Source: Candidatus Sulfomarinibacteraceae bacterium (GTDB lineage Bacteria > Acidobacteriota > Thermoanaerobaculia > Thermoanaerobaculales > Sulfomarinibacteraceae). Taken from it: a DNA stretch of 64,000 bases. How positions within the stretch are numbered: position 1 is the first letter of the stretch; each line of letters begins with the position of its first letter. Location of the stretch: the NCBI GenBank assembly GCA_963796455.1, contig CAWCLO010000004.1, forward strand, positions 928,001 to 992,000. Direction: 5' to 3'. The position numbers and the translations under genes are program-made. The notes beneath the pieces were generated by a model, which saw nothing but the letters and a program-made list of their open reading frames with translations, ran no database searches and was not told the origin of the DNA. Below are positions 1 through 51,466 of this stretch, piece after piece.

Positions 1-534
1 CCAGGTGATATCACAAACGACGGCAGGCACTTTGCGTACATGCTCCAGGCTGAAGAGACGGGTTGGGATATCTGGGCGATGCCTTTGAATGGGTCGGGGG
101 AGGCCTTTCCGCTGTTGCAGTCTGAGTTTATCGAGGTCCGTCCGACCTTTTCCCCGGACGGCAAGTGGTTCGCCTACGGGTCGAACGAATCAGGTCGATT
201 CGAGGTCTATGTCCGCCAGTTCCCCGGACCCGGTGGCCAATGGCAGGTCTCGACCGGCGGCGGAACCGAGCCCATGTGGAGCGGTGACGGATCGGAGATC
301 TACTACGTCGATCCTGGGGGAAACCTCGTGTCCGTGCAGGTCGAGGCTGGATCCGCCTTCAGAGCGGGTTTGCCGGAGACGCTTTTTGCTCCTCCCATCT
401 ACCCGACGATCCAACGCGAGCGCTACGTAGTGAGCGCCGACGGCCAGAAATTCCTGATTCTATCCACGCCCTCAGGTGAAGCTGTGCGGCCCACCACTGT
501 GCTGCTCAACTGGCACTCAGGTCTCCGGGACTAG
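1..534 (+). CDS. C-terminal part of a TolB/PD40 beta-propeller protein (often the tail of a Ser/Thr kinase); runs off the left edge
   Basis: Frame is open from base 1; PD40-like motifs 'PTFSPDGKWFAYGSNESGRFEVYV' and 'PMWSGDGSEIYY'. Confidence 0.75.
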   Translation, partial: PGDITNDGRHFAYMLQAEETGWDIWAMPLNGSGEAFPLLQSEFIEVRPTFSPDGKWFAYGSNESGRFEVYVRQFPGPGGQWQVSTGGGTEPMWSGDGSEIYYVDPGGNLVSVQVEAGSAFRAGLPETLFAPPIYPTIQRERYVVSADGQKFLILSTPSGEAVRPTTVLLNWHSGLRD

Positions 535-41191: not shown

Positions 41192-42447
41192 GCCGTCAAC
41201 TCGCTGCCGGCAGCTGGTTGCGCATTCTTGCCGGGATCGCGGTTCTCATTTTGGCTGTTGAAACCCTGGGTGCGTGGCGATGGGGCAGGGCTGCGGCGGT
41301 TCTGATGCGCAACCCCGATCGCGGTGCGGTCATGCTTTCGGATGACCGGTCCGTCGCCCTTCCCTCGTTCGTAGAAAGATCGCGACGGCTCGTGGTGCGT
41401 GATTTTGGCAGCGCCGACCGCGAAGTCGTTGTCGCCGCGCTGACCCGTTTGGGTCACCGGCAGACGGCTTGGATTCCGGCCCATCCAAGTGGCTTCACAC
41501 ACCTGTCGCACGCCGCCTTGCTCGGTGATCAGCCCGCTGTGGCCCTCGACCTTCTTGGCAAGTCCCTCAAGCGCGATCCACTGTCACCCGCTCTGCGGCG
41601 ATTGCGGGCCATGGTTCTCCTGTACCTGGGCGTTCTGGATGAGGCGCTTCTGGATCTCGCCATCGCGGAGGCTGTGGCACCGGGTCTTCAGAGTCCGGAG
41701 ATCGAGCTTCCCCCCGAGGATCAGCGAGCCGTCAGGCTTGAATCTCTGCGCTTGCGGAGTGAGCTCTATCCCCGCAAGCGGACCGAAACCGCGCTCACCC
41801 TCGCCCGACTGCTGCGCAGCCAGGGTGATGTTGCCGCAGCTGAGCTCGTATTGGCAGATTTCGGGGGTCGTCCCGAAATCGAATTGGAACGCGCCCGGTG
41901 GGCGATGGAGGAAGGCGACCTCGGCCGTGCGATCCCTATTCTGGAGTCCATTGCCGAGCGGAGCTCCTATCCCAGAGCCATACGGGCCAGTGCCTGGTCT
42001 TCCATCGCAGTTGCCCGGGACCGGGACGGCGATCGCGACGGTGCCCTGGCCGCAGCTCAGGCCGCTCTCCAACTCATGCCCGCATCGCCAGCGCCCTATG
42101 TCACCCTTGCCGGTCTGGCACAGCGCAGGGGCGACGCTGACCTCGCACTGCAACACCTGCGGAGGGCGTGGGGGATGGCACCGACCGATGTCGGGCTCCT
42201 GCACCGGATCGCCGCGGTCGCGGAGGGTTCGGGCAAGACTTCCGATGCGATTCTGGCCCTCGAACGAGCAGTGGAAATCGAACCCAATGAAGCTCGCCAC
42301 GCCGCCGCCCTGGTTTCGTTTCAGATTCGGAACCGCGACTTCGTCGAAGCGGCCGGTGCCCTGTCACAAGCTCTCGATCGTTTCCCGACCGATCCGGAAT
42401 TGCTGCGTCTCGCCGAGCGGCTGCAGAGGGATATCGGGATCCGGTAG
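41188..42447 (+). CDS. membrane-anchored TPR protein
   Basis: N-terminal TM helix; repeated TPR-like 'A..L.P' helices. Confidence 0.75.
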   Translation: MSRQLAAGSWLRILAGIAVLILAVETLGAWRWGRAAAVLMRNPDRGAVMLSDDRSVALPSFVERSRRLVVRDFGSADREVVVAALTRLGHRQTAWIPAHPSGFTHLSHAALLGDQPAVALDLLGKSLKRDPLSPALRRLRAMVLLYLGVLDEALLDLAIAEAVAPGLQSPEIELPPEDQRAVRLESLRLRSELYPRKRTETALTLARLLRSQGDVAAAELVLADFGGRPEIELERARWAMEEGDLGRAIPILESIAERSSYPRAIRASAWSSIAVARDRDGDRDGALAAAQAALQLMPASPAPYVTLAGLAQRRGDADLALQHLRRAWGMAPTDVGLLHRIAAVAEGSGKTSDAILALERAVEIEPNEARHAAALVSFQIRNRDFVEAAGALSQALDRFPTDPELLRLAERLQRDIGIR

Positions 42448-42465
42448 GAATTGGGCAGAGGAGAG

Positions 42466-42533
42466 GGAGCAGAGGAGCAGAGGAGCAGAGGAGCAGAGGA
42501 GCAGAGGAGCAGAGGAGCAGAGGAGCAGAGGAG
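42466..42533 (+). repeat. tandem octamer (GGAGCAGA) x8 plus partial copy
   Basis: Eight perfect copies at 42466-42529. Confidence 0.97.
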
Positions 42534-42613
42534 ACTCTGCCCTTATCACGTTGGTCGACCCGCGATGATCTCCCTTTCCCCTCATACCCAGCCGAATCGG
42601 TGGGTCTTTTCAA

Positions 42614-47972: not shown

Positions 47973-48749
47973 ATGGCAATTCGAGAGGTCATTGAAATTG
48001 ACGAAAAGCTCTGCGACGGCTGTGGAGACTGCGTCACCGCATGTGCCGAAGGTGCGATCGCGATTATCGACGGCAAGGCCAAATTGATCAGTGATGTTTA
48101 TTGCGACGGCCTCGGAGCCTGTCTCGGCCACTGCCCTCAGGGAGCTCTCAAGGTCATCCATCGCGAGGCCGACGAGTTTGATGAATCAGCGGTCGAGCAG
48201 CACCTGAAGGGCATGGGGCAGGGGAGAAATCCTGTGGCACCAGCACCTGTTTTTGGTGTCGTCGGTCAAAACCCGATGGCCGGAGGCGGTTGTCCCGGTT
48301 CCCGACCCCAGGTGATGAGCCCCACCCAGGATCCCGCCGTCGCCGCCGGGCCCGGCCCCGCCTCACAGCTCGGACATTGGCCGATTCAGCTCCATCTCGT
48401 GCCGCCCACCGCGCCCTTCTTCCAGAATCAGAATGTGCTCCTGGCCGCAGACTGTGTGGCATTTTCGGTCGGCGATTTCCATCAACGCTATCTGCAGGGA
48501 CATTCCTTGGCCATCGCGTGCCCGAAACTTGACAGCAATCAGGAGATCTATCTCCAAAAGCTCGTCGCCATGATCGACGAGGCGGAGATCAAGAGCCTAA
48601 GTGTCATGGTCATGGAGGTCCCGTGCTGCGGAGGGCTGGTGCGTCTGGTCGAGGAGGCGCTCCGAAGGTCAGAGCGGCAGATTCCGGTCGAATGCCTGGT
48701 AGTGGGCACCCAGGGACACATCCTTGGTGAGTACCAGATCGCCGGCTGA
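47973..48749 (+). CDS. 4Fe-4S dicluster (ferredoxin-like) protein
   Basis: CDGCGDC...C and CDGLGAC...CP; GCPGS, WPIQL, ADC, CPKLD, MEVPCC. Confidence 0.9.
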   Translation: MAIREVIEIDEKLCDGCGDCVTACAEGAIAIIDGKAKLISDVYCDGLGACLGHCPQGALKVIHREADEFDESAVEQHLKGMGQGRNPVAPAPVFGVVGQNPMAGGGCPGSRPQVMSPTQDPAVAAGPGPASQLGHWPIQLHLVPPTAPFFQNQNVLLAADCVAFSVGDFHQRYLQGHSLAIACPKLDSNQEIYLQKLVAMIDEAEIKSLSVMVMEVPCCGGLVRLVEEALRRSERQIPVECLVVGTQGHILGEYQIAG

Positions 48750-48789
48750 TACAATCGGGTCGTTCGATGAGCGGCCCGAGGAGAATAGA

Positions 48790-49917
48790 ATGAGAGACCG
48801 ATTTGGCACCGTCCTAACCGTGGTGGTGCTGTTTTGTGCGGTGGCGTCTGCGCCGCCAGTCGTGGCCCAGGATGAGGGAAAGACCTTATTCTGGGTCGAA
48901 AATTCGACTGTTGAGATCGGCAAGGTCATTGCCGGCCGACCTGCTTCCGCCACATTCCTTTTCCACAACGACGGACCGGAGGATGTCCACATCATTCGGG
49001 CGAAACCTTCCTGAGGATGCACGGTGGCCGAGTTCGACTCGGTCATCCCGGCAGGTGGGTCGGGAACGCTGCGGGCGGTGATCAAAACAAGCGAACAACA
49101 AAGCGGCGTGTTTTCGAAATCGATCAATGTCCAGACCGATGCCGCGGATGCCCGGACTCTGGTCTTGCGATTGCGCGCCACAATCGACCAGCCCATCGTG
49201 GCAAAACCCCGCATGTTTCTTATCGTCACCGCGACCGAAGGCGAAGAGCTGCGAGGAGGTCTTCTGCTCCACCGGGCCGATGGTGTTCCCCTCGATATCT
49301 ACAGTGTGTCCTCCGGAAACCCACTGTTCAAACCGCGGGTCGAAAAGGTCGAGAAAACAAAGGAATTCGACGGGAGGGAAGGTCTGCCTGGAGATATATG
49401 GCTCGAGGTGGTCGGTGATGCAACCCTTGCTGCGGGAACCACGAAGGGCACCCTTCGCCTGGAAACAAATCATCCGGATGTTTCAAAGCTCTCGATTCCC
49501 TATACGATGCGCGTCCGCCCACTGATCACTCTTCGACCGGACGTCGTGAGAATGTGGCCGACCTCATCGACCGAAACCGTCGGTCGAGTTGCCGTCGTCG
49601 GTCTCAACCGAAACGACGGGATCGCCTTTTCGATCACTGACATCGAGGTTTCACATCCGGATCTGTTTACCGTGTCGGCCATTTCGACAAAGGCCGGTCA
49701 GCAACAACAGATCATGGTGGTTTTGGCCGAGAATCTTGCAAGCGACGACCTCGTCGGGAGCGTGGACGGGAGGATCACGATTCGTACCGACGATCCCCGA
49801 AAGCCGGTCATTGATGTTCCGGTCATCGTGGCCCGCAACCGGACTCAATCCCGGCGCCCGCCGAGAGCTTTTGTGCGGAGTCAGACAGCGGCGACTACGA
49901 ACCCGGCAGCGCGCTGA
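48790..49917 (+). CDS. secreted DUF1573-like Ig-fold protein with in-frame UGA at 49012-49014 (candidate selenoprotein)
   Basis: SD GAGGAG, signal peptide; reads AKPS-(TGA)-GCTVAEFDSVIPAGGSGTL in the same frame; the family motif is normally SCGCT. Confidence 0.75.
49023..49047 (+). promoter_or_regulatory. SECIS-like hairpin
   Basis: GGTGGCCGAG-TTCGA-CTCGGTCATC, a 10-bp stem starting 9 nt after the UGA. Confidence 0.5.
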
Positions 49918-51466
49918 CCGGAGCCGATGTTACAAAACGCCATACCGGGTCCTCATCTGTTTTGACGAGTGTCGAGGCCTCGACACGGGAGCGAAACCTC
50001 GCCAGCAATTCGCCGAGCGAACTGCCCGTCGCCGCGGCCTGAAGGGCGTCGAAGACCCCGACATCGCCGCGGCTGAGAAAGGCCTGCCACTGGGCCTCAC
50101 GATAGCCCGGGTGGTCGATTCGGACCCCGCCGAGACCGCTGATCCCGCGCTGAATCAGTTTCATCCTCCGCCGCGCTTCATGTTGGCTGAGCATGAGCTC
50201 CTTCGAATAGGGGGTGTAGGGCTTCGGCACCAAAACGTTGAAGCCGGCGTGAAGGGTCCCGACCCGTCCACGTTCGCGGCCGTAACCCACCATCACTGCC
50301 CGCACCCGGGTGATGAGGTCCACGATGCCGGCGAGGTCGGTGTCGGTCTCGCCGGGAAGACCGATGATGAAGTACATCTTCAGGCTTTCGATACCGCAGC
50401 GCTGTGCGGTTTCGGCGGCGGCGAGAATGGCGCTGTTCGGGATCGGTTTTTTGAGCTTGCGGCGGAGCTCATCGCTCCCGGTTTCCGGTGCGATGGTGAC
50501 CGATCGCGCCCCGGATTCCGCGAGAGGTCGCAGGACATCCTCCGTCATCGCCGGAATTCGCAGCGATGATAGGGCCACATTCAGATCCCGACGTCGGCAC
50601 TGGTGCAGGATCTCCGCCAGACGTGGGTGATCACCGACGGCGGTGGCGACGAATCCGATACGGTCGCTGATCTGCGCGATTCGGTCGACTCGAGCGAGGA
50701 TGCCCTCCTCCGAATAACAACGGAGTCGGCCGTAGTTGTAGCTCACCCAACAATAACGGCACTTCTCGGGACAGCCTCGCGACATCTCGACGAGGCCACG
50801 ACCACTGTATTCGGTATGAGGAGTCACCATGTGGGAGGCTGGAACCATGGCGTTGTCGGCCATGTGTTCATCACGCTTTTCGATTCGTCTCCGGCGGCCG
50901 TTTGGACGCCCATTCTCGTCGAGATGGTGGAGCGGCACGAAATACCCGTCCCGCGTCGCCAACTCCAGGAGGAGCCGGTCGCGATCACGGATTTCGAGAC
51001 ACAGCTCGAGCAAGGGCGGCCACAATCGTTCGGCGGATCCGAGGACGAAGACGTCGACGGCCGGCGACAAGGGGAGGGGATTGATGGATGCCACCGCGCC
51101 ACCCATGACCAGTAGGGGATGCCGATGGTCGCGTTCTTCCCTTCGAGTCGGGATACCGGCTGCCTGAAGAGTCGAAAGCAGATTCGCGGCATCGAGTTCG
51201 AAGGAGCAGCTCCAAGCGAGGAGATCGAGATCGCCGAGTCCACAACCGGTTTCCAGAGTCCTGCCGTTTCCCGGCGCATCCGAGAAGAAGCGTTCGATCC
51301 CGACGTCCTCACATCGGCCGGCGATCTCCACCACCCACTGGAACGCGAGCGAAGACATCGCAACGTGATATGTGTTCGGGTAACCGACACCCACCCTCAG
51401 CTTGCCTGCGGTGGAGACATCGAACACCCGCTTTTCGGAATTCAGCAGGTGACGGCGTTCGGTCAT
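49895..51466 (-). CDS. radical SAM protein
   Basis: YPNTY..AMSSL, RGCPEKCRYC, SSLR, TIAPETG, KMYFIIGLP; start ATG 51466 or TTG 51472 after GGAGAGG. Confidence 0.88.
   Translation of the reverse strand: MTERRHLLNSEKRVFDVSTAGKLRVGVGYPNTYHVAMSSLAFQWVVEIAGRCEDVGIERFFSDAPGNGRTLETGCGLGDLDLLAWSCSFELDAANLLSTLQAAGIPTRREERDHRHPLLVMGGAVASINPLPLSPAVDVFVLGSAERLWPPLLELCLEIRDRDRLLLELATRDGYFVPLHHLDENGRPNGRRRRIEKRDEHMADNAMVPASHMVTPHTEYSGRGLVEMSRGCPEKCRYCWVSYNYGRLRCYSEEGILARVDRIAQISDRIGFVATAVGDHPRLAEILHQCRRRDLNVALSSLRIPAMTEDVLRPLAESGARSVTIAPETGSDELRRKLKKPIPNSAILAAAETAQRCGIESLKMYFIIGLPGETDTDLAGIVDLITRVRAVMVGYGRERGRVGTLHAGFNVLVPKPYTPYSKELMLSQHEARRRMKLIQRGISGLGGVRIDHPGYREAQWQAFLSRGDVGVFDALQAAATGSSLGELLARFRSRVEASTLVKTDEDPVWRFVTSAPVSALPGS

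Follow-up and report, generated by a model that had tools for sequence, protein, structure and literature searches.

A conserved pair of predicted hairpins follows the in-frame UGA of a DUF1573 candidate selenoprotein gene in Candidatus Sulfomarinibacteraceae

A DUF1573 domain-containing selenoprotein (PF07610, motif UGC) is listed as "Predicted with high confidence" in Table 1 of PMC13188914 and also appears in a table of PMC9312934. This family is probably the same as OS_HP2, introduced with two genes in PMC1976440 (Zhang & Gladyshev 2007); the identification is drawn from the slot in the table and from the name of the NCBIfam model. In the bSECISearch model as restated in PMC13188914, the review from which we took the spacing limits, the consensus bacterial SECIS (bSECIS) has a stem of 4-16 bp, a loop of 3-9 nt, an MFE of -7.5 or below, a G in the first two loop positions, and a spacer of 16-37 nt. 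Atypical bacterial SECIS elements exist as well, going by the accessible text of PMC13188914, PMC12013277, and a bioRxiv preprint by Haft. A two-hairpin SECIS layout was not found described in the open literature (titles, starts of abstracts, and text passages), and our literature search returned nothing on selenocysteine in Thermoanaerobaculia.

We analyzed a gene with an in-frame TGA in a 64,000-nt stretch of Candidatus Sulfomarinibacteraceae DNA, here called the window. The read-through product scored 58.2 bits against PF07610 (gathering score, 26.1 bits); the piece upstream of the TGA scored 17.4 bits, and the downstream piece gave no match. The TGA falls on the initial Cys of the CGC motif of DUF1573, and the resulting S-U-G-C-T carries the TGA where homologs have Cys. 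The gene thus resembles the described DUF1573 UGC family in its PF07610 domain above cut-off, its U at the first CGC position, and its single Sec per protein, and it does not represent a new selenoprotein family, since the DUF1573 UGC protein already figures among the predicted selenoproteins. Against the NCBIfam model for OS_HP2 (NF041425), all 39 aligned members match (best E value, 4.1e-26), but the product itself reaches 63.9 bits against a cut-off of 100, with the Cys paralog at 83.8 bits; it is therefore a member of the literature family and not of the OS_HP2 HMM subfamily. It also differs from OS_HP2 in lineage, with relatives titled Thermoanaerobaculia and Ca. Sulfomarinibacteraceae against a 2007 family described from deltaproteobacterial symbionts, and in architecture, which here comprises a signal peptide and three Ig domains. 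The unusual feature of the locus is a conserved pair of predicted hairpins after the UGA in place of the usual single one.

The original prediction placed the open reading frames upstream and downstream of the TGA in one frame, and this was borne out: the frame is open from the ATG at 48790 to the final TGA at 49915-49917, interrupted solely by the TGA at 49012-49014, and with that codon read as U it yields RAKPS-U75-GC77-TVAEFD within 375 aa (Table 1). The upstream Shine-Dalgarno (SD) sequence described earlier is present too, and a signal peptide is predicted. GGAG-type motifs lie 5' of most ortholog starts, and the predicted signal peptide, called by eye from hydropathy, has a basic N-region, a stretch of hydrophobic residues (5-22) that is the most hydrophobic segment of the product, and a cleavage site near VVA/QD; the 375-aa protein is predicted, with good confidence, to be exported. 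The earlier claim that the downstream GTG has no SD did not survive, as a GAGGA at 49013-49017, formed by UGA-GGA, stands 6 nt before the GTG at 49024. This SD-like sequence does not rescue a model of two genes, because the corresponding codon is GTG or TTG in just 10 of 28 Sec-type sequences (GTC, GTT, CTG, or GTA in the others) and lies inside hairpin 1. Gene callers do split the gene, as anticipated: the 297-aa downstream piece in the window has a database entry of its own, and of 78 database matches, 68 are pieces of 223-341 aa without PF07610. A sigma-70 promoter scan gave no sites, and terminator-like matches were no better than chance. At its 3' end the gene runs 23 nt (49895-49917) into the end of a convergent B12-binding radical SAM ORF. 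Elsewhere in the window, a short tandem repeat at 42364-42613, between a TPR gene and the next gene, translates as GAEEQRSR / LLCSSAP units.

Table 1. Features of the DUF1573 locus (window positions) and positions of other candidate Sec genes in the same genome (G000)
Feature	Position	Strand	Description or basis
Shine-Dalgarno-like GAGGAG	48778..48783	+	6 nt 5' of ATG; sequence
Read-through ORF, 375 aa	48790..49917	+	signal peptide (predicted) and three Ig-like (PapD/ASH-type) domains
N-terminal signal peptide (predicted)	48790..48867	+	hydropathy, similar ortholog N-termini; by eye
In-frame TGA, predicted Sec75 of S-U-G-C-T	49012..49014	+	TGA in 31/32 orthologs; Cys in paralog and revertant
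Cys77 codon	49018..49020	+	invariant in 39/39 aligned proteins
Hairpin 1	49023..49047	+	canonical SECIS position; loop UCG or UUCGA, variable YWY
Hairpin 2	49046..49065	+	7 pairs, loop AGGUGG, near-invariant GGU at 49054-49056; candidate SelB-binding hairpin
Ig-like domains of the 375-aa product	residues ~31-135, 137-243, 245-350		AlphaFold2 model, fold searches
Candidate Sec genes (of L222-L233)	C1:1155944, C2:119611, C1:630172, C7:105182, C5:108090, C1:54568
Candidate Sec genes (of L222-L233), rest	C4:602301, C1:471309, C4:241721, C4:219925, C10:125796, C1:356707

The TGA recurs at a column aligned to Cys, as a selenoprotein reading would have it. Among the best ortholog loci from 29 genomes the motif column holds TGA in 28, the exception being a TGC in one genome (G010), and three further orthologs with TGA bring the count to 31 of 32 orthologs. 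These come from a search of 36 genomes of the family, four of which (G002, G013, G024, and G033) yielded no ortholog. The same column is Cys in a paralog (L014), in the revertant from G010 (L017), and in 81 Cys-type sequences. The orthologs are at ~31 to 50% amino acid identity. Homologs are present in all 60 relatives searched, and in the sister family each of 24 genomes gives a single distant match (24 to 31% identity). Two orthologs, L028 (G014) and L260 (G021), keep the TGA and the hairpins and have frames that break downstream, likely through assembly indels. Support for the TGA from sequencing runs is at the level of contigs, not raw reads: a contig from a public run (X3, 151 nt, depth 2; possibly the source sample) is identical to the window over 48902-49052, spanning the TGA, and related contigs in four public runs have no change at 49012-49014 among the 40 of 49 differences listed.

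A similar pattern was seen in a sample of 301 genomes of the phylum, the only tallies in which G083 is counted. An internal TGA was found in 22 of the 150 PF07610 matches listed (of 497), always at the first motif Cys (22/22), and TAA or TAG in none of those listed. These 22 matches come from 16 genomes, all selA-positive (16/16 among the matches listed), whereas the selA-negative genomes (41, with 49 of the 150 matches listed) had none with TGA in the PF07610 motif. Because selA is common in the sample (231/301) and kin are not independent, this association is supporting rather than decisive; the TGA counts are likewise not independent, since the Sec clade has one origin. Scanning the genome contigs with a short motif pattern, one that favors this motif, gave at least 114 stretches. 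Near-identical Sec-DUF1573 genes (L165 and L168) occur in records titled Actinomycetota and Calditrichota, possibly through misbinning or recent transfer.

A stem-loop had been predicted at 49023-49047 with its loop 19 nt past the UGA, and it exists, with 11 pairs counting G-U and a predicted stability of -15.5 kcal/mol. The prediction of one stem-loop is correct insofar as this first hairpin is real and conserved, but it missed a second conserved hairpin at 49046-49065, whose loop lies 38 nt from the UGA (-10.9 kcal/mol). Among the long ORFs of this genome, 2,260 end at an ordinary TGA; a hairpin as stable as the first follows 6 of these stops, one as stable as the second follows 33, and both follow 0. 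Synonymous-codon identity among the aligned genes was 0.76 (expected, 0.42) within codons 76-90 and 0.44 (expected, 0.39) elsewhere. At synonymous sites, 9 of 15 columns inside codons 76-90 were at least 0.9 identical, compared to 2 of 155 outside, and both of the latter fall at codons 91-93, which confines the constraint to codons 76-93. RNAalifold, given 29 sequences, recovered the same two abutting helices unprompted. Covariation is thin: in hairpin 1 a single pair has a compensatory change (8/29 sequences), with 8 mismatches at the same pair, and hairpin 2 has no compensatory pair among the 29 aligned sequences. An Rfam scan of 48600-50100 gave two chance-level matches and no SECIS family.

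Both hairpins track the TGA. Hairpin 1 with at least 7 of 8 pairs was present in 45/48 TGA sequences versus 0/81 Cys sequences, hairpin 2 with at least 6 of 7 pairs in 41/48 versus 0/81, and the Gly codon in the hairpin 2 loop was GGT in 44/48 versus 8/81. Since the helices were defined on TGA sequences, a control by synonymous shuffling matters here; the mean z scores for hairpins 1 and 2 were -1.9 and -1.7 in TGA sequences (n = 49) as opposed to -0.2 and -0.1 in Cys sequences (n = 81), and z fell below -1 in 46/49 TGA sequences for each hairpin versus 19/81 (hairpin 1) and 13/81 (hairpin 2) Cys sequences. In the Sec-DUF1573 genes of other families, z was below -1 for hairpin 1 in 20/21 and for hairpin 2 in 7/21. 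Anecdotally, three genes of other families (L253, L254, and L256) have a weaker or larger-looped first hairpin and a strong second one with a GGUC or GGGC loop, and two (L099 and L105) have GGUC in the first hairpin and a weak second hairpin.

The genome also offers a view of its other candidate Sec genes. A genome-wide screen for UGA read-through gave 160 candidates, from which 20 were picked by eye and 17 scanned; in at least 10 of the 17, the region across or adjoining the UGA matches a redox or selenoprotein family. Twelve candidates (L222-L233) include TlpA/ResA-like, deiodinase-like, GSU2204-family, GSU3128/AhpD-like, and PrdB-like proteins and several peroxiredoxins. L228 and L229 had no NCBIfam match, the latter being presumably DUF3179-like; L226 ends 27 codons past its UGA, and L230 is without a simple hairpin. 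In 11 of the 12, a single hairpin follows the UGA at a spacer of 16-23 nt with G in the first two loop positions, and 10 of these loops contain GU.

How the twin hairpins relate to the consensus bSECIS is less straightforward. They are alike in that stable stem-loops lie in the coding region just after the UGA and a G-G-U loop is present, and both fall within the consensus limits for stem, loop length, and MFE. However, no one hairpin combines the loop G with a spacer of 16-37 nt: two hairpins abut, the one at canonical distance lacks the loop G (UCG; spacer, 19 nt) unless its G21-C27 pair opens, and the one with the GGU-containing loop (AGGUGG) has a spacer of 38 nt, 1 nt beyond the consensus range. 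It is conceivable, at a probability somewhat short of even, that hairpin 2 provides the SelB-binding loop and hairpin 1 serves as a spacer. SelB would then bind the GGU loop ~40 nt past the UGA, and hairpin 1, its loop free to vary, would fold out ~22 nt and bring the GGU loop back to the usual working distance. The thin covariation, the low share of Sec-DUF1573 genes in other families with a stable hairpin 2, and the fit of hairpin 1 to the consensus once its top G-C pair opens all speak against this reading. A comparably strong contender, to which we give slightly less than an even chance, is that hairpin 1 alone is the SECIS, the opening of G21-C27 producing a 7-nt GUUCGAC loop with a 17-nt spacer, and that hairpin 2 is an enhancer or stabilizer. 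In its favor, the distance of hairpin 1 from the UGA matches that of the single hairpins in the 11 other candidate Sec genes described above, the Glu codon at this place is GAG in 45/48 TGA sequences, and hairpin 1 is the consistently stable one in the other families. On the other hand, G21-C27 has a predicted pairing probability of 0.99, the bases after G21 vary (UUC, UAC, CAC, and others), and it is the unpaired GGU of hairpin 2 that is near-invariant, like the GU-containing loops in 10 of the 11 other hairpins.

Evidence for the link between the hairpins and recoding also comes from the lone Cys ortholog. L017 is syntenic with the gene in the window and is its sister on the tree (support, 98), within a clade that holds 42 Sec sequences and 1 Cys sequence (support, 99). 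This tree was built by a quick method from 135 rows with the motif position masked and with SH-aLRT support only; loci that were too short or lacked the motif were excluded. Both hairpins are lost in L017 (synonymous-shuffle z, -0.15 and -0.34), which on these sequences is a reversion to Cys with decay of the predicted RNA signal. The paralog L014 (G000:C10:645106-646134) is a Cys-type (TCGC) three-domain DUF1573 protein of the same genome that belongs to a separate, widespread Cys clade. Since Cys paralogs and a Cys revertant exist, selenium is not essential to the fold.

AlphaFold2, run on a 39-row alignment with U modeled as C, predicted three beta-sandwich domains (pLDDT, 90.9; pTM, 0.77), with residues 74-77, U75 and C77 included, forming a loop between two strands; a single-sequence AlphaFold model of domain 1 (pLDDT, 53.8) was set aside. 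The domains share the fold of PapD-like/ASH Ig domains (Z scores of 10-12 and rmsd of 2-3 Å per domain), the matches being the C-terminal Ig domain of VesB (Z, 12.0), HYDIN (11.2), CEP192 (10.9), and Porphyromonas gingivalis 2QSV (10.7). A profile search matched 2QSV as well (E value, 1.9e-5), but that match spans domains 2-3 only and is without the U-G-C loop. No solved structure matched across the U-G-C motif in sequence and profile searches, a PDB sequence search with the single protein gave no significant match, and an ESM Atlas search with the natural Cys ortholog returned solely DUF1573/HYDIN-type clusters with no functional lead. We found no experimental function for any DUF1573 protein in our literature search. 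The gene neighborhood gives no function either, because the neighbors (LarA-like, cupin, and 4Fe-4S protein genes) are kept mainly in close relatives, and none of the neighbors tested is found at 5 of 29 and 10 of 23 loci; gene context was thus rejected as a guide.

U75 and C77 are the only Sec or Cys residues past the signal peptide, and both are among just 7 positions invariant in 39 proteins. We rank a redox loop above soft-metal binding, and the latter above a structural bond. The chance of a redox role, in which the motif alternates between selenol/thiol and selenenylsulfide and exchanges with or protects envelope proteins, we put at about even. Binding of a soft metal (Cu(I), Hg, or Ni) by U75 and C77 outside the cytoplasm, in place of redox exchange, is unlikely: CxC and selenolate ligands do bind soft metals, and in close relatives genes for a Ni-pincer LarA-like protein and a 4Fe-4S protein lie upstream, but these neighbors are not retained in more distant Sec orthologs, and no His or Met ligand is conserved in the invariant or near-invariant columns, the start Met aside. 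Less probable still, the protein would be an Ig-repeat scaffold of the cell envelope, or an adhesin-like one, in which U-G-C forms a structural Se-S bond. Its closest folds are indeed noncatalytic PapD/ASH Ig domains; however, a single domain holds the whole U-G-C pair in one of its loops, and a costly Sec codon together with ~50 nt of RNA constraint throughout the family would be expected of a reactive site.

We return to the decoding of the UGA. The genes on which a Sec reading depends are there: profile matches in this genome reached 475.6 bits for selA, 317.4 for selB, 347.8 for selD, and 76.4 for tRNA-Sec, all above their cut-offs, and selA, selB, and the canonical tRNA-Sec gene (selC) are intact. 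The check was qualified for selD, which in this assembly is frameshifted by one base near its 3' end, at a short C run (G000:C10:115895-115904; L010). The frameshift is likely a homopolymer or assembly error, because the site is intact in all 13 relatives examined and, in an approximate census of ~27 genes, 2 carried frameshifts; selD is above cut-off in 53 of 60 relatives. The SelD encoded in this genome is of the Cys type (GCGAK) and, in most of the family, has no internal stop; most sister-family genomes encode a SelD copy that an internal TGA interrupts. ARAGORN additionally called five scattered "tRNA-Asp(gtc)" genes of an identical 95-nt length (C1:256404, C1:372006, C10:210759, C10:275636, and C10:353452), which are probably a repeated intergenic element.

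The correspondence of TGA and Cys, the Sec genes, the TGA-specific RNA structure, and the Cys revertant without that structure all agree with the original reading, and the UGA at 49012-49014 very probably encodes selenocysteine. That it is instead read as Cys by a system of the SelC*/tRNA-ReC type, an option the original prediction had entertained, or is a real stop (a nonsense mutation, a sequencing error, or two genes) is very improbable: a tRNA-ReC route from UGA to Cys is known in some bacteria (PMC13582414), the assembled selD carries a frameshift, the downstream GTG has an SD-like GAGGA in front of it, and TGA is the commonest stop in the genome (2,260 of 3,344 long ORFs), yet the TGA is kept in 31 genomes and the downstream start codon is not, an identical public-run contig spans the TGA, there is one selB above cut-off and one convincing UCA-anticodon tRNA, the canonical tRNA-Sec (four UCA calls at a relaxed threshold are poor structures inside open frames), and neither the second SelB-type factor nor the second Sec-like tRNA that a SelC*/tRNA-ReC system needs was found in this 90.5%-complete genome.

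We regard the locus as very probably a single gene, with the UGA read as Sec, likely under the guidance of the twin hairpins, that encodes a predicted exported three-Ig DUF1573 protein with a probably redox-active U-G-C. In the proposed mechanism, SelB and tRNA-Sec would decode the UGA, likely guided by the two downstream hairpins; the product would be a predicted exported three-Ig DUF1573 scaffold whose Sec75-Gly-Cys77 loop holds a probable redox-active selenol/thiol pair in the periplasm, and cycling between selenol/thiol and selenenylsulfide would exchange with or protect envelope thiols. More tentatively, the hairpin pair may define a distinct bacterial SECIS class serving exported three-Ig selenoproteins of the Thermoanaerobaculia that are family-wide and invisible in databases, their redox-active U-G-C loop carried by a fold other than thioredoxin.

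The read-through model mends an annotation error that runs through the family, in which the 68 database matches noted above are headless fragments. The natural Sec/Cys sister pair from G000 and G010, together with the Cys paralog in the same genome, is material for probing the role of the DUF1573 CxC. Should hairpin 2 prove to be where SelB binds, it would be a concrete, mutable example of an "atypical" SECIS that is missed by the consensus model, which would aid both the finding of selenoproteins and the design of recoding.
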